The notes beneath the pieces are model-generated. The model saw nothing but the letters and a program-made list of their open reading frames with translations, made no database searches and was not told the DNA's origin. This document shows, piece by piece, positions 3,849 through 45,138 of a stretch of DNA of 64,000 nt. Source of the stretch: an uncultured Spirochaetota bacterium (GTDB lineage: Bacteria > Spirochaetota > Spirochaetia > SZUA-6 > Fen-1364). Location: assembly GCA_963781885.1 (NCBI GenBank), contig CAWAHW010000004.1, positions 640,001 to 704,000 on the forward strand, given 5' to 3'. Made by a program: the position numbers and the translations under genes. The first letter of the stretch is position 1. Each line of letters begins with the position of its first letter.

Positions 3849-3901
3849 AAATGTCACGGCGTACCGTGACCGCCAGAATGTCACGGCGTACCGTGACCGC
3901 C
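3849..3901 (+). repeat. 2 x 27-bp tandem palindromic repeat (G/A)AAT-GTCACGG-CGTA-CCGTGAC-CGCC
   Basis: Direct inspection; intergenic. Confidence 0.9.
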
Positions 3902-3902
3902 G

Positions 3903-5234
3903 TCAGTAGCGGTACGCGCTCCCGCCGATGAACTCCCGCAGCAGGGAACGCGCGGGCACGATGCCCTCGTCTTGCACGGCGGGTATCTGGTCGAAAAGCG
4001 TCCGCACGCGCACGGCGCGCTCGTATGCATCCTGCCTGTCGGCCACCCCCGCGCACTCCTCGATCACGGGAGCGAGATGCTTCTCCACCCTCGCCTTCAT
4101 GATCGGAAGCTCGTAGGGCAGAAAGCTGTTGACGATGACATGCGCGTGGCGCAGCTCCGGCACGATGTAACGCAGCTCCGCCCGGCGCACGAGGTGCCAA
4201 TGCCTGATCGTGGACCGGGGAGCATAGTTGCGGAACTGCATGTCGCGCACGATCCGGCGGAGCATGCGGATGTCCGCCCAGCGTATGTAGCGGCCGTCGG
4301 CGCCCTTGATCTGGGACAGCGTCTCGATGTACAGGCGGAACTTCATCTCTTCCGGGATGTTGCGCGTCATGTCGGGAAAGAGGCCGTGCAGCGAATCGAT
4401 GAGGATGACCGTGTTCTTTCCGATGGAAAGCTCATCGGTTTCCGGCTCCCGCTTTCCCGTCTTGAAGTCATAGCGGGGAATCTGCACGCTCCTGCCGTCG
4501 ATCAGCTTCTGCAGATGCTCGCTCAGGAGGGAGAGGTCGAGGGCCTGGGGGGTCTCGAAGTCGTAGTCGTCCTCGCCGACCCGGGGATGCATCTCCAGGT
4601 CGAAGAAGTAGTTGTCCACCGCAATGGAGGCCGTCGGGATGCCTTCCGTGGCAAGGCGCTCGCGGACCTTCAGGGTGGTGGTCGACTTTCCCGACGATGA
4701 AGGCCCGGCCACGATCACGACGCGCAGCTCGTCGCGGCGGGAAAGAATCTTCTCTACTGCCGCTTCCATCTCCCGCTCGTAAAATGCGTCCGATGCTTCA
4801 ACAAGGTCCGCGAGCTTTCCGATTGCGACCTGATTGGCCAGCTGCTCGAGCGTCACGCAGCCATGGTCCGTCGCCCAGGAGAGAGCCTCCCAGAGCTTGC
4901 GGTACGGGATATTCTCCTCCGAGTACGTGAGGCTCTCCCTGCCCGCGCGCTTCAGGGCATGCTCGTAGCGGTAGACGATGTAGGCTTTTGCGACGCGCGC
5001 GTGGCCGCGCTCGATCAGCGCCTTCTCCACCAGGTCCTGGATCTCCTCCACCGTGGGCCAGGAGGCGCGCCGCTGGCGCGCGGAGAGCAGGGCGATGACT
5101 TCATCGGTCACCCGCTCGGCTTCCTCGCTGTCCCTCCCGCCGCAGGCGACGGCCGCGCGGAAAACGGCGGAGGAGATCTTGTCCCGGCGGAAGGGCACCG
5201 CGCGGCCGTCCCGCTTGATGATCATGTCGCTCAC
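3903..5234 (-). CDS. ATP-cone domain plus uridine-kinase-like P-loop protein
   Basis: N-terminal IIKRDGRAVPF...VEEIQDLVEKALIERGHARVAKAYIVYR (ATP cone); Walker A AGPSSSGKST, DNYF, DFETPQALD, RMLRRIVRD. GTG start with GGAGG. Confidence 0.85.
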   Translation of the reverse strand: MSDMIIKRDGRAVPFRRDKISSAVFRAAVACGGRDSEEAERVTDEVIALLSARQRRASWPTVEEIQDLVEKALIERGHARVAKAYIVYRYEHALKRAGRESLTYSEENIPYRKLWEALSWATDHGCVTLEQLANQVAIGKLADLVEASDAFYEREMEAAVEKILSRRDELRVVIVAGPSSSGKSTTTLKVRERLATEGIPTASIAVDNYFFDLEMHPRVGEDDYDFETPQALDLSLLSEHLQKLIDGRSVQIPRYDFKTGKREPETDELSIGKNTVILIDSLHGLFPDMTRNIPEEMKFRLYIETLSQIKGADGRYIRWADIRMLRRIVRDMQFRNYAPRSTIRHWHLVRRAELRYIVPELRHAHVIVNSFLPYELPIMKARVEKHLAPVIEECAGVADRQDAYERAVRVRTLFDQIPAVQDEGIVPARSLLREFIGGSAYRY

Positions 5235-5256
5235 GGCGTCCTCCGCGCCTCCGGGC

Positions 5257-6999
5257 TCAATCCAGCGTCCGCGGCCGAACCTCCGTTTCGATCTGGGAAA
5301 GGAAATCGGCAAGGGGAATGAGGTTCTTCTGCTCCCCCGCGCGCGTGCGCACGGACACGCTGCGGCCGTTCTGCTCCTTCTCACCGAGGATCAGCATGAA
5401 GGGCACCTTCTGGTTCTGGGCGTTGCGGATCTTCGCATTCATGCGGTCGTCGCCGCTGTCGATCTGCGCGCGCACGCCGCGCCCCCGCAGCGCCTTCACC
5501 ACCTCTTCGGCATAGCCGACGAAGGCCGGCGCAACGGGTATCGCCACCGCCTGCACGGGTGCAAGCCACGCGGGGAAGGCGCCGCCGTAATGCTCCACGA
5601 GCACGCCGAAGAATCTCTCCATCGAGCCCAGGAGCGCGCGATGCACCATGAACGGCCTTTTTTGCGTGTTGTCGGAGGCGACATAGGTGATGCCGAAACG
5701 CTCGGGCTCGTTCCAGTCGAACTGTATCGTCGTCATCTGCCATTCCCGGCCGAGGGCGTCCTTGATCTTCAGGTCGATCTTTGGGCCGTAGAATGCCCCT
5801 CCACCCTCGTCCATCACGACGTCCAGCTTTTCCGTCTCTGCCGCGCGCCGCAGCGACGCGATGGCCTTCTCCCATGTCGCGTCGTCGCCGATGCCGCCGG
5901 CGGGCTTCGTGGCGAGGTACGCCTTGATGTCCGTGAATCCGAATGCCTTCCAGATCTTCAGGGAGAAGCGCAGCACCTCGAGGATCTCGTCGTCGATCTG
6001 CTCGGGCGTGCAGATAATATGCGCATCGTCCTGCGTGAAGCCGCGCACGCGCAGGAGGCCGTGGAGGACGCCGGACTTTTCGTAGCGATACACGGTGCCC
6101 AGCTCCGCCCAGCGCAGGGGCAGGTCCCGGTAGGAGCGCTGCTGGTTCTTGTAGATCATGAGGTGGAAGGGGCAGTTCATCGGCTTGAGGTAGTAATCCA
6201 CGTCGTCGATGGACAGGGGCGCGTACATGTTCTGCTTGTAGAAGCCGAGGTGGCCGGAGGTCTCCCACAGCCACCCCTTGCCGATGTGCGGGGTGTAGAG
6301 AAGCTCGTAGCCGTTCTTCAAATGCTCGGAGCGCCAGAAGTCCTCGATGGCAAGGCGCACGCGGGCGCCCTTGGGGTGCCAGTAGATGAGCCCGGCGCCG
6401 GCTTCCTCGTGGATGGAATACAGGTCGAGCTCCCTGCCCAGCCTGCGGTGGTCGCGCTTCTCGATCTCCTCCAGCTTTTTCAGGTGCGCGTCGAGCTCGG
6501 CGCGGGACTGCCAGGCGGTTCCATAGATGCGCTGGAGCATCTTGTTCTTTTCATCGCCGCGCCAGTATGCCCCCGCAATGGAGGTGAGCTTGAAGGCATC
6601 GGGCTTCAAGGCGCTCGTGTCGGCGACATGGGGGCCGCGGCAAAGATCGGTGAAGGTGTCCTGCGTGTACGTGGAGATTTGCTCGCCTTCGGGAAAGTCT
6701 GCAATCAGCTCCAGCTTGTATGGCTGGTCCTTGAACAGGTGCTGCGCAGCCTCCCTGCTCACCACGGCGCGCGAGAAGGCGTGGTTGCCGGCGACGATGT
6801 CGCGCATGCGCTTTTCGATCTCCGCAAGGTCCTCGCTCGTCACGGCGCGCGGGAGATCGAAATCGTAGTAGAAGCCGTCGTCGATGGCGGGCCCGATAGC
6901 AAGCTTCGCGCCCGGAAACATCTGCACCACGGCTTCCGCCATGACGTGAGAAAAGGAATGTCGGATCGCGTAGAGCGCGTCCTTCCGCGGATCGTCCAT
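5257..6999 (-). CDS. thrS: threonine--tRNA ligase (no N-terminal TGS domain)
   Basis: RHSFSHVMA, DLCRGPHV, RDHRRLG, KPMNCPFH, RVRGFTQDDAH, GAFYGPKID motifs; RBS GGAGG. Confidence 0.97.
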   Translation of the reverse strand: MDDPRKDALYAIRHSFSHVMAEAVVQMFPGAKLAIGPAIDDGFYYDFDLPRAVTSEDLAEIEKRMRDIVAGNHAFSRAVVSREAAQHLFKDQPYKLELIADFPEGEQISTYTQDTFTDLCRGPHVADTSALKPDAFKLTSIAGAYWRGDEKNKMLQRIYGTAWQSRAELDAHLKKLEEIEKRDHRRLGRELDLYSIHEEAGAGLIYWHPKGARVRLAIEDFWRSEHLKNGYELLYTPHIGKGWLWETSGHLGFYKQNMYAPLSIDDVDYYLKPMNCPFHLMIYKNQQRSYRDLPLRWAELGTVYRYEKSGVLHGLLRVRGFTQDDAHIICTPEQIDDEILEVLRFSLKIWKAFGFTDIKAYLATKPAGGIGDDATWEKAIASLRRAAETEKLDVVMDEGGGAFYGPKIDLKIKDALGREWQMTTIQFDWNEPERFGITYVASDNTQKRPFMVHRALLGSMERFFGVLVEHYGGAFPAWLAPVQAVAIPVAPAFVGYAEEVVKALRGRGVRAQIDSGDDRMNAKIRNAQNQKVPFMLILGEKEQNGRSVSVRTRAGEQKNLIPLADFLSQIETEVRPRTLD

Positions 7000-7059
7000 C
7001 ACGGGCCTCCCCCGCCATGCCCGCCGCGGGAATACGCGGAAGGCTGGCATCAGTCGCTC

Positions 7060-7448
7060 CAGATGACAAAGCCCCTTTCGGCTGGGCTCGTCCTCATCGT
7101 TGCCGCGGGCAAACTGCCCCGGCGCCAAGGACGAAAAGCCGACAGGGGCTTTCCGCGGTTCCACCTTGTTTCACGCCCGCCCCGACCGATTGCCACGGAG
7201 GACCGTGGCCGGGGGACGCGCGCGCTCTCTCTGCCCACTGACGGGGGACGACCGGCAGGCTCTTACTCGACCGCGCGAGCGATCTTTGGAGCCGCAGCTC
7301 GGGAGGGGTTTTCAGCGGGTGTCGTCCAGGCGCCTTGCAGCTCCCGCGCGCGACCGCGCGCTTCGGGCGCCCTCTCTCAGGCCGACTGTGGTGCGTGTCC
7401 GCCATGCGGTTCCCGGACCGGCCGCCTACTCGTCTCCGTCACAGCTTT
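7060..7448 (-). promoter_or_regulatory. T-box riboswitch, Thr specifier ACC
   Basis: Minus strand: Stem I base GCTGTGACGGAGACGAGTAG, AGAGAG bulge, GCTG loop, specifier GAAA-ACC-CCTCCCGAGC (ACC at 7307-7309), AGTA and CCGTCA boxes, T-box AAGGTGGAACCGCG (7154-7167), TCGTCCTT, and a downstream terminator/sequestrator hairpin. Confidence 0.9.
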
Positions 7449-7493
7449 GCCCGGAGTATCCGGAAAATCCGCCGCCGATGTCAAGTGGCCGCC

Positions 7494-7557
7494 GAATGCC
7501 ATGGCGTACCCTGGCCGCCGAATGCCATGGCGTACGAATGCCACGGAGTACCGTGGC
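7494..7557 (+). repeat. cluster of three GAAT-hairpin units (GAAT-GCCATGG-CGTA-CCCTGGC; one truncated copy; GAAT-GCCACGG-AGTA-CCGTGGC)
   Basis: Direct inspection; lies between two divergent TTGACA boxes (7479-7484 minus, 7571-7576 plus). Confidence 0.85.
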
Positions 7558-7608
7558 CGGCGTGGCCGCGTTGACACCTCCCCGGGCCGGCACTACACTC
7601 ACCCTTCG

Positions 7609-9001
7609 ATGAAACGCATCGACATCTACACGATCGACATCGGCGGCGGCCATATCGCCCCCGCCCAGGCGCTGAAACAGCAATTCGACATCATGGGATA
7701 CGAGGACCTCGAGGTGCGCGTCGTGAACCTCGGCATCGTCCTGCCGGCCACGTTCATGCGCTTCATCTACAAGCTCTACTGGGACAAGGCGCTGCGCTAC
7801 CCGCCCCTCATCAACGCATTCTACCGCGGGGCGGACAACCCGTTCATCATGAAGATCGTCGACCGTCTCCTGAGCATCCCAATCCTGCCGCGTTTCGTGC
7901 GATACCTGGAAAAGGAAAAGCCCGACCTGATCGTATCCACCTATTTCACCTTCACGCACTTCGTCGAGTTTCTCAAGCGCGTCGGGCAGATGGATGCCGT
8001 GGCGGTCGTGCTCAATCCCGAGCCATTCGATTCGCACTATATCTGGTTCTCCCAGGCCTTCGAATGGAGCATGGTCTTCTCCCACAAGTCCTACGAGGAG
8101 ATCATCGCCAAGGGCCTTCCCGCGGCAAAGGTCCGCGAGTTCCACTTTCCGATCAAGCCGAGCTATACCAGGCGGACGGAATCGAAGGCGGTCCTGCGGC
8201 GCCGCATCGGGGTCGCGCCGAAGCCATTCACGGTGCTTTTCTTTTTCGGCGCCGAGGGCGTCGGCCCGGTCCGCAAGCATATCAACGCCATGGTCGAGAA
8301 CGATCTTGCCGCCCAGGTCGTGGTGATCTGCGGCAAGAACGAGAAGCTGAAGGCGGAGCTGGACACGCTCGCCCGGGAGCTCACCGGGCCTCTCACACTC
8401 CACGTCCGCGGCTACGTGACGAATGTCTCCGAATACGTGGCCGCCGCGGACGTCGTGGTGGGCAAGTCGGGGCCCAACCAGGTCTTCGAGACGCTGCTGC
8501 AGAACAGGCCCCTTATCATCTCCAGCTACCTTGCGAATGAGAGGGAAACCTCGACGTGGGTCGTCGAGAACAAGGTGGGCTGGCTCACCCGCACGCCGAC
8601 GCACCTCACCGCGCTGCTGGCCCGGCTGGCATCGCACCCGTCGGTGATCAAGGAATACCAGGCGAACATCCGTGCGCTGAAGCTCCGTTCAGGGGCACCG
8701 GAGAATCTGCGAGTTCCTCTACGGCCTCGTGAGCCAGGATCGCGTGGTGAAGAAGAGGCCGATGGCGGATGCGATTCGACGGCTTCGGGAGGCCGTGCTC
8801 GCGGAGGGCGAGGCGTTGTCGCGCCGGTTCGATGCGTCCCAGGCTGAACGGCAGAAGCGCCGCGCAGATGCCCGCGTCACCGCCGGGAAGCGCCCGAATG
8901 TGCGCCACGCGGCAAAGCAACCGGCACCAAAAATCATCAAGCGGCCTTCCGCAGGCGCCGCCAAGCCCGCGGCCCGTCGCAAAGGTGGAAAGGCGCGCTG
9001 A
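7609..9001 (+). CDS. MGDG synthase/UgtP-like GT28 glycosyltransferase; probable 1-nt insertion near 8704
   Basis: GGGHIAPAQAL, PDLIVSTY, VICGKNEKLK, GYVTNVSEYVAAADVVVGKSGP. Removing one A gives GAPEICEFLYGLV... continuing to the stop at 9001 (uncorrected frame ends at 8847). Confidence 0.85.
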
Positions 9002-9076
9002 CGCGACGCGGTAATCCGCGTCATTCGACGCGACGCGGTAATCCGCGTCATTCGACGCGACGCGGTAATCCGCGTC
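9000..9076 (-). repeat. 3 x 27-bp tandem palindromic repeat GAAT-GACGCGG-ATTA-CCGCGTC-GCGTC
   Basis: Exact tandem copies filling the gap between two convergent stop codons; no unique spacers. Confidence 0.95.
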
Positions 9077-11067
9077 TACTTCCAGTCCCGGATGCGCTTC
9101 TCCAACGATGCCGCGGTGATCCCGAGGTGCTCGGCGATCTTCTGGTACGGCCCTGATTCGCCGAACCGGTCGATGCCTACCACCAGCGTCGTGGTATCAA
9201 AGGGGCCCTTCCAGCCGAAGGAGACACCCGCCTCGAAAATGACGAGCTTCGCAGCGGGAGGAACGAGTGATGCGCGGAAATCGGCCGGCTGCTTGGCGAG
9301 CAGCTCGCGGGAGAGCACGGACACCACGCGCACCTTCATATCGGTCAGGGCAGCCGCGGCCTGCAGCGCCACGGAAACTTCGGAACCTGTCGCGACGATC
9401 ACGACATCGGGCTTGCCGTCGCAGCTCTTCGCAATATAGGCGCCGCGCGCAATCGTCGTGCGCCAGTCGGGGTCCGCCTTGGGATACACGGCGATGCCCT
9501 GGCGCGTGAGTGCCAGCGCGCTCGGCCCGTCCGTCCGCCCCATCGCAATGCGCCACGCCATTTCCGTCTCTTCTGCATCACCCGGGCGCAGGAGCATGAG
9601 GTTGGGGATGGCACGGAGCGCCGCAAGGTGCTCCACGGGCTCGTGCGTCGGGCCGTCCTCGCCGACGAAGACCGAATCATGGGTGAGCACGTAGATCACG
9701 GGCAGCTTCGCGATGGCCGCGACCCGCACCGCCGGGCGCATGTAGTCGCTGAAAACCATGAACGTCGCGCAGAACGGCCGCAGCCCTCCGTGGTAGGCGA
9801 TGCCATTGCAGACAGCCGCCATGCCGTGCTCGCGGATGCCGAAATGAAAATTGCGCCCGAGCGGATTGGCCTTGCTGAAATCGCCCATGTCCTTGAGATT
9901 CGTACTATTCGACGGGGCGAGGTCGGCCGAGCCGCCGACCAGGTTCGGCACCACCTTTGCGATGGCGTTGAGCACCTGCCCGCCTGCAGCCCGGGTGGCA
10001 AGATTGTCCCCGAGCTTGAAGACCGGCATGGTGGCTTTGGAGAGGTCCGCCCCGCGGGCAAAGCAGAGATCCCATTCCTTCACCTTGTCGGGGTTTTCCG
10101 CACGCCAGGCGGCGAAGCTCTTCTTCCACTCATCGTAATGGGTCTTCCATTCCGGCTGCTTCGCCTTGAAATAGGCGGGGGCATCGGGGAAGACGTAGAA
10201 CTGGCTTCCGTCGGGAACGCCGATGGCCTTTTTCGCGCCTGCGGCTTCCTCCGCCCCGAGGGGCTCGCCATGTGCCTTTGCCGTGCCGGCGCGCGTGGGG
10301 GCGCCCTTGCCGATCACGGATTGCAGGAGGATGAACGTCGGGCGATCCGCGGCGGCCTTCGCGGTCTGCACCATCCCCATGATGCCTTCCAGGTCGTACA
10401 TGCTGCCGGACATTGTGCGCCAGCCGTAGCCCTCGTAGCGCTTCATGACGTTTTCGGAAAAGGCAAGATCGGTGGAGCCTTCGATCGTGATGCGGTTCGA
10501 ATCGTAGAAGACGATGAGCTTTCCCAGGCCGAGGTGCCCGGCGAGCGACGATGCCTCGGAGGCCACTCCTTCCATCATATCGCCGTCGCTCGCCAGGACG
10601 TAGGTCCAGTGGTCGATGATGGCGCGCGTCGGCGTGTTGAAGCGCGCGGCGAGGATCCGCTCCGCGATGGCCATGCCCACCGCATTGGAGATGCCCTGTC
10701 CGAGCGGTCCACCCGTGGCTTCCACGCCGGGGGTCACGCCCCACTCGGGATGACCGGGCGTCCGCGAGCCAAGCTGGCGGAAACCCTTGATGTCGTCGAG
10801 GCTGAGGTCGTACCCCGAGAGGTGGAGGAGGGCATAGAGCAGCATGCAGCCGTGGCCCGCTGACAACACGAACCTGTCCCGATTGATCCAGCCCGGATCC
10901 TGCGGCCAATGATGGAGCAGCTCGCCGTAGACGAGCGCCCCGAGCTCCGCGCATCCCATGGGAAGACCGGGATGTCCCGATTTCGCCTTCTCCACCGCGT
11001 CGATCGCAAGCGATCTGACGCTGTTTGCAACCGCCGTCAAAGCCGCAGAGTTCATCTCGTCCTCCAT
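9076..11067 (-). CDS. tkt: transketolase
   Basis: [54 protein letters not shown]. Confidence 0.97.
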
Positions 11068-11777
11068 GTAATTTCCGTTCGTTCTTCCGTGATGTCGATC
11101 AGGGCGTAGCGCCCGTTCTTGTAGGGGCCGACGTTGACGCAGGTCACCCCGCCGAGAGAATCCTCGCCCGCTGCTTCGTGGATATGCCCGCAGATGCAGA
11201 GATTCACCCGGCCGCTCCTGGCGGCATTCCGGGAGCCGCTCAACTCCGCGGCGGGCCGCGGAAGGGCGGCATTCCGAGGGCCGCTCAGCAGAAACTCCCG
11301 CACCGGTACGGAGCCCACGTGCATGCGGGTGAAGCTCTTGTCGATTTCCGTGGCGTGGGGTGGTGCGTGGGATACGAGAACCTTGCAGGGGGCGTCAGAA
11401 ATCTGCGCCCATCCTTCCGCGAGACAGCGCGCGGCCTCTTCCGGCGGGAGCTCCCACGGCGTGCGGAATGGCGACGGGGTGCCGCCGCCCAGCCCCATGA
11501 AACCGACGCCGTCTATGACGACTCCCCGTGCGTGAATGTCGATTCCCTTGTCGCCGAGATAGCGACGTACGCCTTCCCGGTCCATATTCCCGCCGACGGC
11601 GACCATGCGAACGCCCGCGCCCACCAGGGGGCCAAGAACGGCCTCCGCCTCCGCGTAGTCGCCTAGATGGGTGATGTCCCCGACGATGACCACGACGTCC
11701 ACCCCGGGATTCCGGGCCAGGACCGACTCCAGCCCCGCGGCCTCCCCATGAATGTCAGAAAGGCAGAGGAGCTTCAT
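11052..11777 (-). CDS. metallophosphoesterase (Icc-like) with an in-frame palindromic insertion
   Basis: SDIHG, VGDIT, GGNMD, SHAPP, CGHIHE motifs. Confidence 0.9.
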
Positions 11778-11783
11778 GTCCGT

Positions 11784-15025: not shown

Positions 15026-15033
15026 GAAAGCTG

Positions 15034-16231: not shown

Positions 16232-16241
16232 GAGACCCCCG

Positions 16242-16634: not shown

Positions 16635-20102
<3,468 letters not shown>

Positions 20103-34311: not shown

Positions 34312-34339
34312 CCTTTTCGACAGACAACGGAGGCATCAC

Positions 34340-35731: not shown

Positions 35732-36073
35732 CGCGGTACCCCGCGCGTGGGGCGGCAGCGCGGTCGCTGCTGGCGACATTCTGGCCGCGCAGCGGACAGC
35801 GGGAGCCCGTCCCCCAGGGATGGCGAAGTCGGCCGAGCACAGGATGTGCGAAAGGCCGACCGTAGCCTTCCGCGCGTAGGGCGGCAGCGCGGTCGCTGCT
35901 GGCGACATTCTGGCCGCGCAGCGGACAGCGGGAGCCTGTCTCCATGGATGCATAGCGCGGTACCCCGCGCGGAGGGCGGCAAGCGCTTGCGGAGCAAGCG
36001 CTGAGAGCCGCGAGGCCGAGCACAGGATGTGCGAAAGGCCGACCGTAGCCTTCCGCGCGTAGGGCGGCAGCGC
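35729..36073. repeat. mosaic (BIME-like) palindromic repeat region, module order A-B-C-B-A-hairpin-C
   Basis: A TAGCGCGGTACCCCGCGCG (35729, 35953); B about 60 bp (35748, 35877); C about 60 bp containing GCACAGGATGTGC (35831, 36014). Confidence 0.9.
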
Positions 36074-36077
36074 CGGC

Positions 36078-36935: not shown

Positions 36936-37052
36936 TCAAAAAGATAATCAATCATTCTCAAGTCGCCCAATCGACGTCTCCGCTCAACCAGTGGGCGATT
37001 ACTTCCGATAATATGTGCAGCAAGAGACCTTTTTCCCGAAAGCGAGGTGTTC

Positions 37053-37359: not shown

Positions 37360-37392
37360 GAACCGATCACTATCCAGTGCCCGACGCAGCAT

Positions 37393-38680: not shown

Positions 38681-38703
38681 TCCATTGGCCTCTCCATATT
38701 AAT

Positions 38704-38757
38704 TACATCGATATCATCGATATAAATTATGTTATCGAATTATCCGGACATGGTCAA
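38704..38757 (-). promoter_or_regulatory. marR promoter and candidate operator ATCGAT-ATC-ATCGAT
   Basis: TTGACC-N17-TAACAT on the minus strand; inverted repeat at 38707-38721 at the predicted start site. Confidence 0.6.
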
Positions 38758-38920
38758 CAACAGGCAGGATGAAAAGCGCCACGGGGCGGCATGGGGAAGC
38801 AAATAAGGCGCTGGAAAGATGACGGCGGTACAGGGGGAGATCTCGGCGTCCCGCCGGGCGCACGCCGCGAGGCCAATCATCGGGAATTGGGTGCTTCTGA
38901 AGGGCTTTCTGTGGAAATTC

Positions 38921-38971
38921 TTGCCCGAATTCGGGCAAAATAATTGAAAAGCAGATAAAAATCGATATAAT
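38921..38971 (+). promoter_or_regulatory. perfect 18-bp palindrome plus sigma70 promoter of the orf-glmS operon
   Basis: TTGCCCGAATTCGGGCAA (38921-38938); TTGAAA-N16-TATAAT (38944-38971). Confidence 0.65.
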
Positions 38972-38980
38972 GAATCTTCG

Positions 38981-39241
38981 ATGAACCTGGATGAGTTCAG
39001 ACGCCACATCACTTCGAATTATGGGATCGCCGAAAGTGACTTTGAGCGTCTCCACGAGGAGTTTCTCTCCTACTTCGGCCGGACGTTGGAAGAGTACGTT
39101 CTCCAGCGCCATGCAGAGCTCCAGATGGCGGGAAAGAAAAATCCGGAAATCTACCGGCTCATCAAGGAGGAAGCCACGGCGCGCCGCTTCGGCGTGACCG
39201 GGCTTTCGGAACGAATGATACGACGCATCATCTACGGATAG
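38981..39241 (+). CDS. small glmS-associated hypothetical protein, HTH-like C-terminus
   Basis: 86 aa ending LSERMIRRIIYG; its stop overlaps the glmS RBS. Confidence 0.8.
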   Translation: MNLDEFRRHITSNYGIAESDFERLHEEFLSYFGRTLEEYVLQRHAELQMAGKKNPEIYRLIKEEATARRFGVTGLSERMIRRIIYG

Positions 39242-39250
39242 GAGAAACAC

Positions 39251-41088
39251 ATGTGCGGAATCGTCGGGTACGTGGGGTCGCGGAATGCCGTTCCCATCCT
39301 TATGGAGGGCCTGAAGCGGCTGGAATATCGCGGATACGATTCTGCCGGCATCGGCTGCGTGGTGCGGGGGAAGCTGAAGGTGGTGAAAAAGGAGGGGCAC
39401 CTGGCGAATCTCGAGGCGATCCTGCCGGAAGGGCTCTCCTCCACGACGGGCATCGGCCACACGCGGTGGGCGACGCACGGCGGCGTGAATGACGCGAACG
39501 CCCACCCCCAGACCGGAGCAGGCGGCAAGGTGGCAGTCGTCCACAACGGGATCATCGACAACTACGACGCCCTGAAGAAAAGGCTGATCGCGCAGGGCGT
39601 TTCATTCACGAGCGACACGGACACCGAAGTCATCGCGCAGCTTGCCGCGAAGTTCCTGGAGGCAGGCGATGACCCCGAGAGCGCCGTGCGGGAAACGCTG
39701 GGGCTCATCCATGGGACGTACGGCCTCGTCTTCCTGTTCGCGGATCACCCGGGGCTCATCATCGGTGCGCGCAATGGCAGCCCCCTGGTGCTGGGCGTCG
39801 GCGAAGGGGAGATGTTCGTGGCATCGGACGCCAACGCCATCGTGCGCCACACGCCAAAGGTGGTCTACCTGGACGACGGGGAGACGGTGGTGCTCACGCC
39901 GGAGGAGTTCAGCACGAAGGACCTGCGCGCCGCCGTTGTGGACAAGCGCGTGGAAACCATCGAGTGGGTGGCCGCCGACACCGACAAGAACGGCTACCAG
40001 GACTACATGCTGAAGGAGATCTTCGAGCAGCCGGAATCGGTGGCGCGCGCCTTCGGGGAGGGCGGCAGGCTCGTGCCGGAGTTCGGCACGACGAAGCTCG
40101 GGGGGCTGAACCTGGAACGCCGGGATTTCTTCGACATCCGCCGCGTGGTGATCATCGCCATGGGCACCGCCTACCACGCCGCGATGATCGGCGCGCATCT
40201 TCTGGAAACCATCGCCCGCATACCCGCGCGCGCCGAGATCGCCAGCGAGCTGCGCTGCCGCAATCCCATCGTCGAAAAGGAGACGCTGTACTTCGCCGTG
40301 AGCCAGTCGGGGGAGACGGCGGATACGCTCATGGCGCTGCGCGAGATACGCAGCAAGGGCGGCCGGGTGATGGGCATCATCAACGCCGTCGGCTCCACCA
40401 TGGCGCGGGAATCCGACGGCGGCGTGTACGTGCACGCGGGACCCGAGATGGCCGTGGCGAGCACGAAGGCATTCACGAGCCAGGTGATGAGCTTCGTCCT
40501 CATCGCGCTGCTCTTTGCGCGGATGCGCGACCTTTCCCTCGCAGAAGGGAAGGTCGCTCGTGGCGGAGATGGCGCAGATCCCCGGACCTCATGCGGCGCA
40601 TGCTCGCGCAGGCGGAGGAGGTGCGACGGGTCGCGCGCAAATACAGCGGCGCAAAGACATTCCTCTACCTCGGCCGCGGGCCGAGCTATCCCATCGCGCT
40701 GGAAGGGGCGCTGAAGCTGAAGGAGATCGCCTACGTCTTCTCGGAGGGCATGTCGGCGGGGGACGTGAAGCACGGGCCAATTGCCCTCGTGAGCGAGGAG
40801 ACACCCGTCGTCATGATCGCCGTCAAGGGCGACACGCTGGAGAGGACCATCGGCGGCATGGAGGAGATACGGGCGCGCAAGGGCAGGGTGATCGCCGTGA
40901 CCAATGTGGACGATCCCCGGATCACCCGCATCGCCGAGGATGTCATTCGTGTGCCGGAGACGCGGGAGGCACTCTCCCCGCTCCTCACCGTGATCCCCCT
41001 GCAGCTATTAGCGTACTACATCGCCGTGGAGCTCGAGCGGAACGTGGACAGGCCGCGCAATCTCGCCAAGAGCGTCACGGTGGAGTAG
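39251..41088 (+). CDS. glmS: glutamine--fructose-6-phosphate transaminase; indels near 40555-40590
   Basis: MCGIVGY, LEYRGYDSAG, GHTRWATHG, SQSGETAD, VASTKAF; EGALKLKE and PRNLAKSVTVE are in the second frame. Confidence 0.95.
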
Positions 41089-41164
41089 CCCCCGGCGGCA
41101 GGACGCCGCAAGCCCGCGCGATTCCGTTTGCCGGCAAAATCCCGCCGACGGTATCTTCCACACC

Positions 41165-42703
41165 ATGGCTGAAACGGCGCGAACCGGATCCGGCCCCTGG
41201 GTGCTCACGGCGACGATCCTCGCATCCAGCATGGCCTTCATCGATGGAACGGCCCTGAACGTGGCCTTGCCGGCGCTGCAGAGCTCCCTGCACGCGAGCG
41301 GGGAACAGCTCCTCTGGGTCGCGAATGCCTACCTGCTCATGCTCGCCGCACTGATCCCGATCGGCGGATCCCTCGGTGACGTGCTGGGCCGCAAGAAGAT
41401 CTTCGCCGTTGGCATCGTCCTTTTCATGCTCGCCTCCCTGGTCTGCGGCGTGGCACCGACCATCGGCTTCCTCATTGGCGCACGGCTCGTGCAAGGCGTG
41501 GGAAGCTCGCTCATGATACCGGGAAGCCTCGCCATCATCACCGCGTATTTCGGTCGTGAGAGCCGGGGAAGGGCGATCGGCACGTGGTCCGCCTTCACGA
41601 CCATCGTCACCATTGCCGGGCCGATTCTCGGGGGAGTCCTCTCGAACGCCGGATTCTGGCGCGGTGTCTTTCTCATCAACTTCCCGCTCGGCGTCCTGGC
41701 GTTGCTGGTCCTCTTCCTGAAGGTGCCCGAGAGCAGGGACGAAAAATCATCCGGGCGCATCGACTACTGGGGAGCGGCGCTGCTCGCCCTTGGGCTCGCG
41801 GGCCCCACCTACGGTCTGCTCTCCGCGCCCGATCTCGGGTTCGGCGATCCGCGCGTCTTCGGGACTCTGGCCGCGGGCGTGGCGGCGCTTGCCGCGTTCG
41901 TGGTGGTGGAGGCGCGGAGCAGACACCCGATGATACCCCTCGGGCTTTTCTCCTCCCGCACATTCAGCGGCGTGAATCTCCTGACATTCGGGTTGTACGG
42001 CGCCCTGAGCGTGGGCACCTTCTTCCTTTCGCTCAACATGGTGCAGGCGCAGAGCTACAACATGGCCGTTGCCGGATTCGCCTTCACGCCCTTCGCCCTC
42101 ATCCTCACCGCCCTGTCGCGCTGGGCAGGCGGCCTTGTCGACAGGGGCGGTCCCCGGTTGCCCCTCATGGTCGGGCCGGCCATCGCGGGTGGGGCATTCC
42201 TTTTCATGGCCTTCAGCGGTCTCTCCGACGGGCCGTCGCATTACTGGACGACATTCTTCCCCGGCATTGTGCTCCTTGGCATCGGCATGGGCATCACGGT
42301 GGCGCCGCTCACCACCTCGGTCATGAGCTCGGTGGCATCGCATTTCGCCGGCACGGCGTCGGGGATCAACAACGCGGTCTCCCGGACGGCGGGCGTCCTT
42401 GCCATCGCGGTGGTCGGCGCGGTGGCCCTCATCGTGTTTTCACACGCCATGCAGACGCGCACCGCGTCGATCCAGATAAGCGGCGAGGCGCGCGCGGCCC
42501 TGTCCGCGGAGGCCACGCGGCTGGGTGCAGCGGCCGTTCCCTCGCAGGTGGCCGCGGATCAGATCGGCGCGGTACAGACCGCCATCCGCCTTGCATTTGT
42601 GGATGCATTCCACGTCGTCATGCTGATCTGCACGGCGCTCGCCTGGATAGGCGCCGCACTTGCAGGAGTGTTTGTGGAAAAGAAGCTCGCGGCGGCAGGC
42701 TGA
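41165..42703 (+). CDS. MFS transporter, DHA2 (14-TM) family
   Basis: SSMAFIDGTALNVALP, GSLGDVLGRKK, GPILGG, ASGINNAVSR. Confidence 0.92.
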   Translation: MAETARTGSGPWVLTATILASSMAFIDGTALNVALPALQSSLHASGEQLLWVANAYLLMLAALIPIGGSLGDVLGRKKIFAVGIVLFMLASLVCGVAPTIGFLIGARLVQGVGSSLMIPGSLAIITAYFGRESRGRAIGTWSAFTTIVTIAGPILGGVLSNAGFWRGVFLINFPLGVLALLVLFLKVPESRDEKSSGRIDYWGAALLALGLAGPTYGLLSAPDLGFGDPRVFGTLAAGVAALAAFVVVEARSRHPMIPLGLFSSRTFSGVNLLTFGLYGALSVGTFFLSLNMVQAQSYNMAVAGFAFTPFALILTALSRWAGGLVDRGGPRLPLMVGPAIAGGAFLFMAFSGLSDGPSHYWTTFFPGIVLLGIGMGITVAPLTTSVMSSVASHFAGTASGINNAVSRTAGVLAIAVVGAVALIVFSHAMQTRTASIQISGEARAALSAEATRLGAAAVPSQVAADQIGAVQTAIRLAFVDAFHVVMLICTALAWIGAALAGVFVEKKLAAAG

Positions 42704-42733
42704 AGGCCGCAGCCCTGCGCTACCGGGCTGAGA

Positions 42734-42994
42734 TCAGCCGAAATTGCCCCAGAGCATGAGCAGCTTCGAGATCTGATCCGTGTCCACGACGTGCCGGGTC
42801 TTCTTCGTGATGATGCCAAGCTCGCTCTCTTTGAGACGGGAGGTCTGCGGCGGTCTGCCCGCCATGTAGCGCGTGTAGGTGATCCAGGAAAGCCCGGCGC
42901 CGTCCTTGTCGACCTTGTCGATGTAGAAAAGCACGGCGGGCTCCCCGTTCACCTCGTGCAGCCACCACTGGTTGTTCTGGAGTTGAGCGGGCAC
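42734..42994 (-). CDS. small hypothetical protein (PAQLQNNQWWLHEV...)
   Basis: Coding-like codon usage; TACACT -10 box 6 nt before GTG. Confidence 0.65.
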   Translation of the reverse strand: MPAQLQNNQWWLHEVNGEPAVLFYIDKVDKDGAGLSWITYTRYMAGRPPQTSRLKESELGIITKKTRHVVDTDQISKLLMLWGNFG

Positions 42995-43109
42995 AATGAT
43001 AGTGTAGCCGGCGGAGGCAGGGTTTTCCAATGACCGCTTCCGGCACGGGCGGCGTGTCACGCGGCGGTCGGCGTCGCTCCGTGGGCGCGCGGACGACTCG
43101 CTCGCGCCG

Positions 43110-45110
43110 CTACCAGGCAACCTCCGCAAACATGCCCGGGTGATCCGACGGACCCTCGGGGACGTAGCGGGCGTGAAGGACGCGCGCGGCGCGCGTGACG
43201 AATATATGGTCGATGCTGGCGGCCGGATCCGACGCACCGGGTTCCACCGTCCGCTCCTGCGCCGTGACCCACGCGTCGTCCAGGACGGCCGCGGTCTGCC
43301 GGTACTGCTCGGTCGTCGGATCAAAATTGAAGTCGCCCAACGAAATGGCGAGCGGCACGCCGGCGGCCCCCCGCGTGGCAGCGTCGATCACGAGCCGCTG
43401 CTGGGGCAGGGCGCCGTCGTTGTCGAGATGCGTGACAAGGACGCGCAGGAGCCTTCCCCCCGCGTCGACGTCAGCCTCGATGCAGGCGGTCTGCTCGCCG
43501 CGGGACGGCATGAAAAAGGTGCGGGCGTTGCGAATGGGGTGCCGTGAGAGAAGCGCCACCCCGAAGGTGCCGCTTTCGGGCAAAGGACCGTAGTAGGAGT
43601 ACATGCCAAGCCCGTCGGCGAAGAAGCGGACGACGTCCGCGTTGCCCCCCGCAATCCGGGCCGTATCCGACTCCTCCAGGCCGACGATGTCGGGATCGAG
43701 GCGACGGATCACCTCGCGCTGGGCCAGGAAGCTCTCCTGGCCGGTCGCACTGTAGCCCTGCTGGATATTGTACGTGAGGATGCGCAGGCTGCTCTTCAGG
43801 GGCGCCGGTGTCGGCCGCGCGGAAGAAAGCCCCGCAAGGAGGACAGACGCACCGGCAACGACGAGCGCTGCGATGAGCCATCCCGGCCGGCCATCGGACG
43901 CGACGCCCGCAGCGGTCGGCCGCGCGACCAGGAGCAGCGCGAGCGCCGCGAGCACGGCGGGGATGATCGTGACGAGCCAGAACTGGTTGCGGAAAAGGGG
44001 ACCGACGACGGGAATGTAGTCGTAGACCGTGGTGAATATCTGTGCGAAAGACAGGAGGAGCAGGAGCACGGCGCCAAGACCGAAGCCCGTGGCGATCTTC
44101 CGCGGCGAGGGCCGGCCGGAAAACAGAGCGTCCGCCATGAGCGCGAAGTCGGCATAGAGCACCGGGTGGAGCACGAGCATCGCCCAGAACGCAATCCGAG
44201 CCGCGGCGTCCGGCGCGGCGGCATAGAGCGGATACAGGGTCGTCGCGGTGAAATGCGGCTGGCGGAGCAGCAACGCAAGGGCCAGTGAGACGATAAAGAG
44301 AAGGTTCACGCAGAGGAGCACGACGGGCGAAAGGACGCGGCGGAACCCCGGCACGCCGAGCCAGGACCCGAGGAAAAGCGCAAGGGCGCCCGCCTGCACG
44401 GCGACCACCGCCGTGTCGCTCACCTCGCCCCATCGGGCGATCACGGTCGGGCTCGTGAATCCGAAGTACAGCATGATGAGGACGGCACAAAGGCCGACGC
44501 TGAGGCCAAATGTTTTCGCGCCGCCCATACGCGCTGCGCCCGGGTCGGCCTGGGGGACTTCGGGACGCAATTCGCCCGACGTCCCCGCGAAGAGCCGGCC
44601 CAGGAAAAGAACCAGACAGATGCCGGCAAGCGCCGCGGCCAGGATGATGGACCAGCCTTCGACGAAGAGCAGGCTTCCCGCTTGCAGGCTGCGCAGAAGG
44701 ATCGACAGGAGCACCCCGAATCCCAGCGCCGCGCCCTTCAGCGGCGGCTCGTCCGCCGACTGCCGCACGTGGCAGACAAGGAAAATGAGGGCTGCGCCGC
44801 ACCCCACCCCCGCGGCGAGCATGCGCCACCGGGTGGCAAGCGGCAGGCTGACTGCCCACGCCACAAGGGCAAGCGCGGCTGCCGCCGTGGCGAAGACCCG
44901 ACTGTCCATGCCTCGCGGAAAGAGCAGGAGGAGGAAGGGGGAAAGCAGGAAAAGGATGTAGATGATTTCCGGTGGTATATCAGTGCCCAGGAGTCCGAAC
45001 GTGTAGGTGGCTTCGATGAACCCGGTGATCAGGCTGAAGAAAACCATGAAGAACAAGGCGTCACGGATGCAGCTTACGACCGGAGCGTCCATTACCTTTC
45101 TCATTGCCAT
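43110..45110 (-). CDS. polytopic membrane protein with C-terminal EEP domain, Cwh43/PGAP2IP-like
   Basis: About 13 TM, then LTYNIQQG, DIVGLEESD, VTHL, LGDFN, IDHIF, SDH. Start may be 45104. Confidence 0.88.
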   Translation of the reverse strand: MAMRKVMDAPVVSCIRDALFFMVFFSLITGFIEATYTFGLLGTDIPPEIIYILFLLSPFLLLLFPRGMDSRVFATAAAALALVAWAVSLPLATRWRMLAAGVGCGAALIFLVCHVRQSADEPPLKGAALGFGVLLSILLRSLQAGSLLFVEGWSIILAAALAGICLVLFLGRLFAGTSGELRPEVPQADPGAARMGGAKTFGLSVGLCAVLIMLYFGFTSPTVIARWGEVSDTAVVAVQAGALALFLGSWLGVPGFRRVLSPVVLLCVNLLFIVSLALALLLRQPHFTATTLYPLYAAAPDAAARIAFWAMLVLHPVLYADFALMADALFSGRPSPRKIATGFGLGAVLLLLLSFAQIFTTVYDYIPVVGPLFRNQFWLVTIIPAVLAALALLLVARPTAAGVASDGRPGWLIAALVVAGASVLLAGLSSARPTPAPLKSSLRILTYNIQQGYSATGQESFLAQREVIRRLDPDIVGLEESDTARIAGGNADVVRFFADGLGMYSYYGPLPESGTFGVALLSRHPIRNARTFFMPSRGEQTACIEADVDAGGRLLRVLVTHLDNDGALPQQRLVIDAATRGAAGVPLAISLGDFNFDPTTEQYRQTAAVLDDAWVTAQERTVEPGASDPAASIDHIFVTRAARVLHARYVPEGPSDHPGMFAEVAW

Positions 45111-45116
45111 TCCTCC

Positions 45117-45138
45117 GAATGAGGCATCCTAATGCCTC
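45117..45138 (+). repeat. single GAAT-hairpin unit GAAT-GAGGCAT-CCTA-ATGCCTC
   Basis: Same 4+7+4+7 geometry as the arrays at 3849, 7494 and 9000. Confidence 0.6.

Follow-up and report, generated by a model that had tools for sequence, protein, structure and literature searches.

Family A, a REP-like hairpin repeat with a RAAT foot in the intergenic DNA of peat spirochaetes

The window, a stretch of 64,000 nucleotides from an uncultured spirochaete, carries three arrays of a short hairpin repeat (family A), copies of a shorter hairpin (family B) and a lone hairpin of similar geometry. The first array lies 5 nt off the reverse TGA stop of an ATP-cone/uridine-kinase gene (3903-5234, minus strand), the second occupies the 86 nt separating the back-to-back -35 hexamers of thrS and a glycosyltransferase gene, and the third adjoins the stop codon of a transketolase gene. 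The features are as follows.

3849..3901, plus strand: family A array of two units, AAAT/GAAT-GTCACGG-CGTA-CCGTGAC-CGCC, period 27, the first foot being AAAT
7455..7484, minus strand: promoter-like site on the thrS side, TTGACA-18-GATACT, its -35 box 9 nt from the array 5' end
7494..7519, plus strand: family A unit GAAT-GCCATGG-CGTA-CCCTGGC-CGCC, one stem mismatch
7520..7570, plus strand: nested family A pair, a guest unit inside the loop of a host
7571..7599, plus strand: promoter-like site of the glycosyltransferase gene (7609-8847), TTGACA-17-TACACT
9000..9076, minus strand: family A array of three GACGCGG-ATTA-CCGCGTC hairpins, linker GCGTC, foot GAAT, period 27
11211..11229, minus strand: family B unit GAAT-GCCGC-CAGGA-GCGGC, inside a predicted metallophosphoesterase gene (11052-11777, minus strand)
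35763..35781, minus strand: family B unit GAAT-GTCGC-CAGCA-GCGAC, intergenic, within a longer repeat of about 80-96 nt
35892..35910, minus strand: family B unit, intergenic, in a second copy of the longer repeat that holds the 35763 unit
45117..45138, plus strand: lone hairpin GAAT-GAGGCAT-CCTA-ATGCCTC, its stem unrelated to family A

The original prediction had united four of these loci by a common geometry, a GAAT foot followed by a 7-bp stem and an NNTA loop. This geometry does join the three arrays, but the hairpin at 45117 is probably a chance occurrence and not a family member, its stem being unrelated; a simulated level of 1-4 such hairpins per genome, at one mismatch or fewer, fits three loci with unrelated stems, 45117 among them. 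The three units proposed at 7494 are present but unequal, one having a stem mismatch and one being nested in the loop of another. The host is split after its loop into a left half (7520-7535, GAAT-GCCATGG-CGTAC) and a right half (7561-7570, CGTGGC-CGCG), and the guest between them (7536-7560) is a complete unit plus CGG (GAAT-GCCACGG-AGTA-CCGTGGC-CGG). The -35 box of the glycosyltransferase promoter begins immediately past the array tail, and the TGTCAAG block of the thrS-side promoter is kept in the orthologous regions of relatives. At 9000-9076 both the three hairpins and the period of 27 are as described, except that a foot is missing from the first hairpin, which overlaps the transketolase TAG stop (9076-9078). 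Folded as DNA, the window arrays give -16.9 to -31.6 kcal/mol (z -3.0 to -4.3), the array at 3849..3901 standing at -16.9 kcal/mol and z -3.0. Rfam covariance models matched none of the arrays, either over the whole window at the gathering score or over 3700-9200 at E up to 1.

The family A repeats are real and far above chance, as the genome-wide check proposed at the outset makes plain: a pattern search of the 4.64-Mb genome (G000) found RAAT with a perfect 7-bp stem and NNTA loop 154 times, compared with 0, 0, 0, 1 and 0 times in five Markov-3 simulated genomes, and 186 times when up to one mismatch was allowed, compared with 1, 1, 2, 4 and 4. When the 1854 perfect hairpins of 7-bp stem and 4-nt loop in the genome are sorted by 5' foot, AAAT (90) and GAAT (83) lead, and the next-commonest foot has 47. 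The unit is about 25 nt long and strand-asymmetric, with the consensus RAAT-GCCACGG-NNTA-CCGTGGC-CGC, in which a 5' RAAT foot precedes a GC-rich 7-bp stem, a loop of 4 nt with TA as its last two bases, and a 3-nt linker, CGC or CGG; its core is an 18-bp inverted repeat. The foot had been taken for an invariant GAAT; it is AAAT at 41 loci and GAAT at 32, and it is present in 131 of 136 later array hairpins, 26 of 41 first hairpins and only 21 of 43 single ones.

Stems do differ with pairing retained, but they are not free to vary, since GCCACGG/CCGTGGC dominates (37 locus-level stem types), followed by GCCACCG/CGGTGGC (10) and a few others. In an ascertainment-free set of units, chosen by 13 fixed positions only, stem pair 6 is G-C 51, C-G 11 and T-A 2 times, stem pair 2 is C-G 54, A-T 4 and T-A 2 times, and stem pair 4 is A-T 52 and G-C 6 times; one orthologous unit has the stem GCCGCCG/CGGCGGC in G005 and GCCACCG/CGGTGGC in G000. 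The compensated changes are real. Palindromes may also stay symmetric through intrastrand repair, for which selection is not needed. Family A is strongly conserved in sequence with a few compensated stem variants, contrary to the suggestion that it is conserved in structure rather than sequence and would escape ordinary repeat finders; these would see it, since a 21-nt pattern with two Ns matches 129 copies. The short subtype was correctly recognized, and family B is a second real hairpin family with the foot of family A: GAAT-GYCGC-CAGSA-GCGRC has 17 exact matches genome-wide, several of them tandem with period 24, and the foot of GCCGC-CAGGA-GCGGC is GAAT in 8 of 13 cases and AAAT in 5 of 13.

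Family A comprises about 66 loci and about 187 units, and the expectation of a dispersed, mostly intergenic family of REP type is borne out, with 58 of 69 raw loci intergenic by our own gene calls (made with a crude codon-usage finder), coding sequence making up 84.5% of the genome. Among the 11 loci called genic, several involve ORFs made by the array itself or over-long calls. The intergenic loci divide into 23 divergent, 23 co-directional and 12 convergent, classes that hold 0.26, 0.57 and 0.17 of intergenic bases, a placement close to that of an element landing anywhere between genes, with some divergent excess. The divergent gene pairs in which this excess is found need no transcript end. 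Neighbouring genes are unrelated housekeeping genes (those for ThrRS, transketolase, Ffh, L20, flagellins, pyruvate kinase, RecN and others), and sharing no function they form no regulon.

The arrays are same-direction tandems of 1-17 units with periods of 24-36, uniform inside one locus and different from locus to locus. Their linkers of 3-14 nt are themselves repeated, so the arrays have no unique spacers of similar length of the kind that mark CRISPR. Neighbours within 150 nt include no true inverted pair, the two apparent ones being overlaps of one palindrome. A perfect outer helix of at least 6 bp brackets 10 of 66 loci, compared with 181 of 4890 control positions, and the nested architecture seen at 7520..7570 recurs at at least nine other loci, where one host has a stem (GTCACG/CGTGAC) unlike that of its guest. 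With respect to the flanking landmarks, TTGA[CGA] stands at 3-6 nt from 10 of 66 loci (1.3% of random intergenic positions) and CTA at 3-5 nt from 10 of 66 (1.6%). Arrays ending 3-24 nt ahead of a TTGA[CGA] box number 19 of 66, and in 10 of these 19 TAnnnT follows 16-18 nt past the hexamer. Eighteen array edges lie within 7 nt of a stop codon.

Family A is a genus-wide, genus-specific hairpin family in peat spirochaetes. With the 21-nt pattern as probe (no matches for the reversed control in G000), it was found in 18 of the 20 other genomes of the genus, in 1 of 4 belonging to the family's other genera and in 0 of 16 from the other families of the order, and in metagenomes it occurs in at least 122 stretches; viral contigs had none. 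The relatives are MAGs, many of them incomplete, and G000 itself is 92.6% complete. The consensus is identical across species, a uniformity that selection by a host protein, instead of continued spread, could also produce. The proposed comparison of orthologous sites revealed variation in both presence and copy number of the repeats, while the adjoining promoters and stop codons stay. At the PilZ promoter G000 has six units and G005 one, and the stretch from -35 to -10 is identical; at the 3' site of transketolase the numbers are three and one, with a rare stem and loop shared. Among the orthologous regions of the 21 genus genomes, the glycosyltransferase promoter has canonical units in G000 only, and the TTGAC-type -35 and TACA-type -10 boxes are kept. 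Of four aligned species only G000 has, in a 5' UTR, a nested double hairpin of 48 nt, and an insert of about 150 nt bearing repeats directly follows a TAG shared with the empty G005 site. These sites yielded neither a target-site duplication nor a clean filled and empty pair differing by one unit, and most gains are complex.

We favour, with somewhat better than even confidence, the reading that family A is a REP-like selfish or structural hairpin repeat, rarely inserted and locally amplified in tandem, and dependent on a putative factor that is not a RAYT. Units would seldom gain a new site, and would do so by inserting into DNA that is single-stranded or folded into a hairpin, at the few intergenic spots able to tolerate them: on the outer side of -35 boxes, immediately past stop codons and in 5' UTRs. 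Once there, the number of units would grow and shrink through replication slippage or unequal exchange. The putative trans-acting factor would read one strand as a folded hairpin, and for this reason the asymmetric foot and loop would be kept. Effects on the host, for instance as RNA 3'-end hairpins past stop codons, would arise incidentally at some loci, and the family would not exist on their account.

The main alternative is that family A is a RAAT-tagged class of REP whose single strand an HUH/Y1 enzyme cuts and moves, with the foot as guide tetranucleotide, the enzyme being an undetected RAYT-like protein or a resident IS200-type TnpA acting in trans. The geometry is that of group-3 REPs and of IS200/IS605 ends, with a 5' tetranucleotide, a short perfect hairpin and conserved loop positions, and the sharing of one foot by two different hairpin families, which occur within one array at metagenome locus L115, fits the idea of a tag. 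Nested units enter hairpin loops always after NNTAC, as expected of a single-strand-specific, site-specific enzyme. The original prediction looked to a Y1 or RAYT gene flanked by units, and none emerged: in none of the 21 genus genomes, G000 being searched with 16 kb of it withheld, does the RAYT model NF047646 reach its cut-off, although RAYTs are detectable by this search, since 1 of 14 control genomes passes. G000 has five Y1 genes, which by their scores are IS200-type and not RAYT (140-144 bits on NF033573, 35-39 on the RAYT model with its cut-off of 80), and in 11 TnpA loci examined no repeat units adjoin the gene. The resident IS ends are CCACCGCC-TATG-GGCGGTGG and CCACCTCC-TCTG-GGAGGTGG, or in a second type have other stems; one IS copy has a right-end hairpin, AAAT-CCACCGCC-TCAG-GGCGGTGG, that is loosely like a unit. 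Derivation of family A from IS200/IS605 as a non-autonomous element is not supported, as these end hairpins have other stems and loops. Across the genus Y1 presence and repeat load disagree, with units and no Y1 match in G002 (96% complete, 27 units), G012 (97%, 6 units), G010 (89%, 17 units) and G005 (69%, 46 units) and the reverse in G008 (four Y1 matches, two units) and G016 (two matches, one unit), an argument that is weaker than it appears because multi-copy IS are often missing from MAGs. Inverted REP/iREP doublets are absent as well, and the orientation of arrays against GC skew is only 39 to 27. We consider this alternative unlikely.

A bolder version, which we also regard as doubtful, would make RAAT hairpins a third class of tag mobile as single-stranded DNA, beside GTAG and CGTC, with a 25-nt unit and a non-RAYT enzyme. 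Insertion of the unit (foot, hairpin and CGG) may be site-specific, following NTAC where a hairpin loop is exposed and perhaps also beside TA-containing landmarks, namely stop codons and the upstream side of -35 boxes. The enzyme may be neither a RAYT nor a recognizable Y1 protein, or may be an IS200-type TnpA that works in trans on substrates differing from the ends of its own element. If true, no domesticated RAYT would be coupled to this REP-type system, whose mobile unit would be among the smallest known.

A function in host RNA appears to us improbable, whether the hairpins close transcripts at the 3' end, by terminating them with no U-run or by blocking 3' exonucleases, or stand right after stop codons to regulate in a translation-coupled manner, a type of role put forward for E. 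coli REPs. It draws on the stable folds of the window arrays and on the 18 gene ends close to an array, 14 of which face the 3' edge, where the mRNA has a hairpin and then AUUY (AUUU or AUUC); at C2:864243 G000 and G005 both retain 4-5 nt from stop to hairpin. A 2015 study by Liang, Rudd and Deutscher in Mol Cell reportedly shows that REPs within 15 nt of stop codons affect translation. GTAG REPs are described near stop codons, with REP termini supplying the TAG (PMC3733652). However, divergent genes flank 23 of the 58 intergenic loci, which stand upstream of both promoters and are not expected to be transcribed, and of the arrays between co-directional genes 16 are sense and 7 antisense, whereas a hairpin with a U-tail would require the reverse bias. 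A terminator scan of 3700-9300 left the three arrays there uncalled because they have no T-run, the best tail being ATTT or ATTC on the opposite strand, and neither presence nor copy number is conserved at orthologous sites. It is very improbable that the units are duplex-DNA targets, stacked ahead of promoters, of a nucleoid protein or a dimeric regulator, and so work as an activator or UP-like module or, where two promoters stand back to back, as a supercoil-absorbing cruciform, since the 18-bp inverted repeat, the 19 arrays before TTGA[CGA] and the filling of the 86 nt between -35 hexamers are set against compensated stem changes unlike selection by a protein reading two identical half-sites, an asymmetric foot and loop, 12 convergent loci with no promoter, promoters conserved among species where the arrays are not, and downstream genes without a common function.

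The preferred reading, of a REP-like repeat with rare insertion and local amplification, argues mobility from comparative patterns, as no mobilising enzyme was found. The tight spacing to TTGA[CGA] and CTA needs a target preference or function that this reading does not predict, and the 14 of 18 stop-codon edges that are 3' edges hint at host use.

As a short extragenic palindrome at high copy number, family A is a REP in the general sense. It resembles the GTAG and CGTC REPs in its short GC-rich extragenic hairpin with a conserved 5' foot tetranucleotide and conserved loop positions, its dozens to hundreds of copies reiterated head to tail, its copies near or overlapping stop codons with TAG over-represented, and its several hairpin classes per tag. 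The TAG beside some arrays is the stop codon of the neighbouring gene, present at the empty site too. Family A differs in that its tag is RAAT, GTAG and CGTC being absent from its foot on both strands, in that no RAYT was detected in the 21 genus genomes, and in its almost purely same-direction tandems of up to 17 units without inverted doublets, its units nested in each other's loops and its arrays often directly upstream of -35 boxes. Group-3 REPs are short perfect palindromes with an 8-bp stem and 3-nt loop in S. maltophilia and a 5-bp stem and 4-nt loop in Marinomonas (PMC3733652, PMC8266576). A REPIN is two inverted REPs moving as a pair and dependent on a single-copy RAYT (PMC3116915, PMC3337134). 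Family A is similar to the REPIN-RAYT system in being vertically inherited in a lineage as a palindromic population near one consensus, and differs in having neither inverted pairs nor a RAYT.

Gene-less derivatives of IS200/IS605 are named PATEs. IS200/IS605 elements insert next to a short specific sequence in single-stranded DNA (PMC3201880), and guides are the 4 nt 5' of the hairpin foot (PMC8266576, PMC3201880). For IS608, of which GAAT had been put forward as the right-end guide, the passages of PMC3201880 used here give the cleavage sites TTAC and TCAA and the left guide AAAG, and the string GAAT is absent from them. Family A has the 4-nt guide position of the subterminal hairpins and shares its genome with IS200-type elements, but its unit is one 25-nt hairpin instead of a left end and a right end, the resident IS ends differ in stem and loop, and repeat load and TnpA presence do not co-vary. 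Mycobacterial MIRU are 40-100 bp long and are not simple hairpins, and a terminator-like hairpin motif is also conserved in mycobacteria. Going by general descriptions of these elements, family A is like them in its intergenic tandems of variable copy number, its GC-rich genome and its hairpins at gene ends.

The genome under study (G000; 4.64 Mb, 61-64% GC, 7 contigs) carries a real, genus-wide family of REP-like hairpins with an RAAT foot, which has a tandem and nested architecture and is found without a RAYT, the TnpA-REP enzyme. Our structural scan, based on regular expressions, took in stems of any sequence. Among the 1854 perfect hairpins with a 7-bp stem and a 4-nt loop present on both strands, the commonest tetranucleotides at the 5' foot are AAAT (90) and GAAT (83), with the next commonest foot at 47, and when the foot is tabulated against the end of the loop the same two feet combined with TA (80 for AAAT and 74 for GAAT) are followed by a cell of only 13. 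With perfect stems, the pattern RAAT-N7-NNTA-rc(N7) is found 154 times, and allowing up to one mismatch raises this to 186, compared with 0, 0, 0, 1 and 0 perfect occurrences, and 1, 1, 2, 4 and 4 with at most one mismatch, in five order-3 Markov genomes. The dispersed footed hairpins of the original prediction are therefore far above chance (154 vs 0-1), relative to simulated sequence and to other feet alike. We list here the units in the window (C4:640001-704000), where family A is the main family and family B a shorter subtype.

Window 3849-3901: family A array, two GTCACGG-CGTA-CCGTGAC hairpins, period 27, with foot AAAT on the first and GAAT on the second
Window 7494-7570: family A array, one full unit with a stem mismatch, then a unit holding another complete unit in its loop
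Window 9000-9076, minus strand: family A array, three GACGCGG-ATTA-CCGCGTC hairpins, period 27
Window 11211: family B copy, inside a predicted metallophosphoesterase gene
Window 35763 and 35892: family B copies, within a longer repeat of about 96 nt
Window 45117: lone hairpin, stem GAGGCAT unlike other units, present in the sequence

All of the predicted window hairpins are present, although the 7494 locus proved to be a nested arrangement and the hairpin at 45117 is probably not a member of the family, its stem being unrelated and the number of such loci being at chance level. In the 9000-9076 array, the first hairpin lacks a foot and overlaps the transketolase stop codon (TAG). As single-stranded DNA, the three window arrays have folding energies of -16.9, -22.4 and -31.6 kcal/mol (z-scores -3.0 to -4.3). 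The window also contains a bacterial 16S rRNA gene truncated by the window edge, of which the 5' 1162 positions are present (1-1176, minus strand; 1125 bits) and, in the leader of the ThrRS gene (7124-7451, minus strand), a weak T-box-like match (23.4 bits, E 0.035, far below the gathering score of 93); the orthologous regions of the 20 relatives retain blocks of this leader.

The family A consensus is RAAT-GCCACGG-NNTA-CCGTGGC-CGC. There are 190 NAAT-footed units in 69 loci (36 single, 11 double, and arrays of up to 17 units), and array periods range from 24 to 36, most commonly 25 and 27. Three loci with unrelated stems (GAGGCAT at window 45117, TGTAAAA and CCTTCGA) match the chance level and were dropped from later counts, giving a set of 66 loci and 187 units. 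Within a locus the units of an array are alike, whereas from one locus to another the loop, the linker and sometimes the stem change, a pattern that points to local amplification. The foot had been described as an invariant GAAT, but it is in fact RAAT (AAAT or GAAT), found on 131 of 136 later array hairpins, 26 of 41 first hairpins and 21 of 43 lone hairpins; it belongs to the 5' side, as only 1 of 43 lone hairpins is followed by RAAT. No inverted doublets of family A units were found in the genome. For a view of the stem free of pairing selection, we chose units by 13 fixed positions only (168 units, 62 loci), and in this set pair 6 is G-C in 51, C-G in 11, T-A in 2 and non-paired in 5, pair 2 is C-G in 54, A-T in 4, T-A in 2 and other in 3, and pair 4 is A-T in 52, G-C in 6 and other in 5. 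Because these three variable pairs still co-vary, base pairing of the stems is maintained. The predicted compensation thus holds, but the stems are not free to vary as conservation of structure alone would have it, since they stay within a narrow set of sequences.

Nine or more loci contain a unit within a unit: the inner one is complete and carries an added CGG, and in every case this insert is preceded by NNTAC and followed by CGTGGC; the nested part of window 7494-7570 reads GAAT-GCCATGG-CGTAC / GAAT-GCCACGG-AGTA-CCGTGGC-CGG / CGTGGC-CGCG. A perfect outer helix of at least 6 bp brackets 10 of the 66 loci, compared with 3.7% of 4890 control positions. The host stem at C6:288069 (GTCACG/CGTGAC) differs from the guest stem (GCCACGG/CCGTGGC), and for this reason the two host halves belong together. 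The strongest hint that a unit, about 25 nt long, has moved as a module into an exposed loop comes from this nesting, for which a template switch is another possible origin.

The footed hairpins had been proposed as possible substrates of an HUH/Y1 transposase. Pfam Y1_Tnp identifies five genes in the genome, four of them in identical or near-identical copies of a 577-bp insertion sequence (IS) and one diverged.

C2:1128822-1129398, C2:1140964-1141540, C4:799708-800284 and C6 near 11,000: near-identical copies of the 577-bp IS200-type IS
C5 near 309,400: diverged IS200-type copy

The 577-bp IS encodes only a 150-aa TnpA, and all copies start with TTGAGTGAG; their left flanks have no obvious shared target, and the hairpins at the IS ends are other than the repeat units. 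The Y1 proteins score 140-144 bits with the IS200 model (cut-off 55) and 35-39 bits with the RAYT model (cut-off 80). The RAYT model gave no match above its cut-off in any of the 21 genus genomes, none of the 11 TnpA loci examined contains a repeat unit, and no nuclease or transposase was recognized by Pfam among 41 proteins neighbouring the arrays, so that the expected Y1 or RAYT gene flanked by units did not materialize. Y1 matches occur in 11 of the 20 other genus genomes, with a distribution that does not track repeat load.

Completeness, repeat units and Y1 matches in six other genomes of the genus
G002: 96% complete, 27 repeat units, no Y1 match
G012: 97% complete, 6 repeat units, no Y1 match
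G010: 89% complete, 17 repeat units, no Y1 match
G005: 69% complete, 46 repeat units, no Y1 match
G008: 85% complete, 2 repeat units, 4 Y1 matches
G016: 97% complete, 1 repeat unit, 2 Y1 matches

This comparison is not final because multi-copy IS elements are often lost from metagenome-assembled genomes (MAGs); a single-copy RAYT is expected to assemble. Mobilization of RAAT hairpins by an HUH/Y1 enzyme is possible, and what weighs against it is the failure of the RAYT model to find the enzyme across the genus.

The arrays lie mostly between genes. Using our own codon-usage gene finder (3976 genes, 84.5% coding), 58 of the 69 loci are intergenic, which agrees with the predicted bias, and several of the 11 "genic" loci are ORFs made by the array itself or over-long calls. 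The intergenic loci are divergent in 23 cases, co-directional in 23 (16 sense, 7 antisense) and convergent in 12, and the corresponding shares of intergenic bases are 0.26, 0.57 and 0.17. Relative to local GC skew, array orientations divide 39 to 27, a split too small to establish a replication-strand bias. Promoter-like and stop-like sequences adjoin the arrays: TTGA[CGA] starts 3-6 nt past the last hairpin at 10 of 66 loci (1.3% of random intergenic positions) and 7-24 nt past it at 9 further loci (5.1%), 10 of these 19 loci having TAnnnT 16-18 nt after the hexamer, and CTA, the reverse of TAG, starts 3-5 nt past the last hairpin at 10 of 66 loci (1.6% of random positions). In 80 metagenome loci analysed (86 arrays with enough flank), some of them orthologues of G000 sites, TTGA is found at 3-6 nt in 9 and CTA at 3-5 nt in 5. 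The window array 7494-7570 fills the gap between two back-to-back promoter-like sites, the only ones that a promoter scan found in 5.6 kb. With both edges considered, arrays have 18 gene ends no more than 7 nt away (TAG 14, TGA 2, TAA 2; one locus counted twice), and TAG accounts for 13 of 17 stops near arrays, compared with 34.7% of stops with a downstream spacer of at least 30 nt (p = 5e-4).

An RNA-level function for the host could be proposed as the general reason for the family, but 23 of the 58 intergenic loci are flanked by divergent genes, a setting in which no transcript is expected, and this speaks against it. At the stop-codon loci a host use is still conceivable, as 14 of the 18 nearby gene ends face the 3' array edge. 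The arrays have no Rfam family match, and no terminator-like site was called by the scan at the three arrays of window 3700-9300. The family is not a regulon, because the neighbours (41 proteins, Pfam) are unrelated housekeeping families together with a few proteins without a match, and a viral origin was rejected, as the 21-nt family A core pattern (two Ns, at most one mismatch) has no match in viral contigs.

The same pattern is matched 129 times in G000, where the reversed control finds nothing, and is present in 18 of 20 other genus genomes (1-46 matches), in 1 of 4 genomes from other genera of the family, in 0 of 16 from other families of the order, and in at least 122 metagenome stretches. 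Upstream of a glycosyltransferase gene, three elements are retained across the 21 genus genomes, namely a TGTCAAG-type box on the side of thrS, a TTGAC-type -35 and a TACA-type -10. The two -35 boxes stand anywhere from about 9 to about 150 nt apart; G000 is the only genome in which canonical units are seen here, several species have half-unit-like remnants, and two species carry a different RAAT-footed tandem in the 5' UTR. This tandem (GAAT-CCGCCGA-AATA-CGTCGGC-GCAAA, at least three units; stretches L036 of G001 and L035 of G017) lies just downstream of the promoter in the apparent 5' UTR, and a similar one (GAAT-CCGCGGA-GCAT-ACCGCGG, three units, period 31) is found at G000 C2:979917-979979. 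In the closest relative, G005, whose glycosyltransferase has 92% protein identity, the transketolase 3' site has one unit vs three in G000, with the same rare stem and loop, and a PilZ gene promoter has one unit vs six, with a differing compensated stem pair and an identical -35 to -10 stretch. Downstream of an HD-domain gene, an additional stretch of about 150 nt that includes units begins in G000 directly past a TAG common to both genomes, and at C2:789751 G000 has five units and a further piece of about 75 nt where G005 has a plain GCCGCGG hairpin after TAG. At C2:951,5xx, a promoter common to four species is followed in G000 only by a 48-nt nested double hairpin in the 5' UTR, and just upstream of the same -35 box there is a family A unit in G000 and a different small repeat in G005. 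Since orthologous sites differ in units yet keep promoters and stops, these alignments indicate that the repeats turn over while adjoining functional elements stay. Variation in presence and copy number is therefore observed, but a clean empty site was not obtained for the lone unit at C6:121522, where synteny on one side is not kept in the four relatives looked at. Contigs from one DNA sequencing run yielded just short pieces of the organism and its relatives, uninformative about variation of the arrays. Several other sites are not comparable in G005 because its contigs (C57, C151, C22, C320) end at or beside repeat arrays, and these contig ends also show that the arrays fragment short-read MAG assemblies.

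The short subtype, family B (GAAT-GYCGC-CAGSA-GCGRC), is as real as predicted and is a second family with the same foot, having 17 exact matches in G000, several in tandem with period 24; all 13 copies of its hairpin GCCGC-CAGGA-GCGGC carry GAAT (8) or AAAT (5). The basal stem GCCRC/GYGGC is common to both families, and at the metagenome locus L115 a family A unit is directly followed by a family B unit. The direct repeat of about 96 nt that carries the family B unit (window 35735-35830 and 35870-35950, 94% identical) has further partial copies on C5, C6, C7 and C2. Family B units also lie within predicted coding regions, including a ZapB-like ORF (C5:77511-77580, C6:403111, C4:163010), and with a period of 24, or 8 codons, these could be in-frame repeat insertions or gene-call errors. 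Some arrays adjoin a "head" element of about 60-70 nt (C2:789873-789950, C2:864314-864375, C7:556890-556952 and others; only 7 blast hits in the genome), which contains CAAC-TCCGC-[CT]AGGA-[GA]CGGA-AGG and has a CCACGG...CCGTGG hairpin (8-nt loop) at its end. Its inner hairpin, TCCGC-CAGGA-GCGGA, is a third small family lacking the RAAT foot, given that it has 17 copies with CAAC as the foot. Genome-wide there are about 364 occurrences of another hairpin, CGCCC-CGCGC-GGGCG, flanked by a constant GTCG...CGTG, whose appearance suggests a CRISPR repeat from one or several large arrays. At C4:161218-161331 (L051 719-832), about 114 nt match more than 20 places in G005 at 82-93% identity; this, too, is a dispersed small repeat and possibly a MITE.

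The usual explanation for REP-type repeats is their partner enzyme, and this family, from uncultured peat and sediment spirochaetes, shows the outward habits of REPs (extragenic position, a tag at the hairpin foot, compensated stems, closeness to stop codons) yet differs from them in its tag, its tandem and nested architecture and its lack of a RAYT in 21 genomes. Continued movement of the units would imply an activity that acts on hairpin loops; should they no longer move, they would show the reach of slippage and structural self-maintenance for a 25-nt palindrome. In practical terms, the arrays break MAG assemblies and, as seen in our own gene calls, yield false ORFs in GC-rich genomes.

With respect to described repeats, core 16-mer and 18-mer strings had no match in the literature searched, and 10-mer core strings matched unrelated primers and similar sequences. 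The passages of papers on REPs and spirochaetes that we consulted do not mention the family. In habit, the family is a REP-type element. It differs from the REP/RAYT system in tag and enzyme, from REPINs in having no inverted pairs, and from IS200/IS605 derivatives in its ends. Group-3 REPs have perfect short stems, loop determinants and a 5' tetranucleotide, and family A resembles them in all three (PMC8266576). With the tagged REP families it has in common that units are repeated head to tail, that they lie near the ends of ORFs and that TAG occurs where the two meet (PMC3733652).
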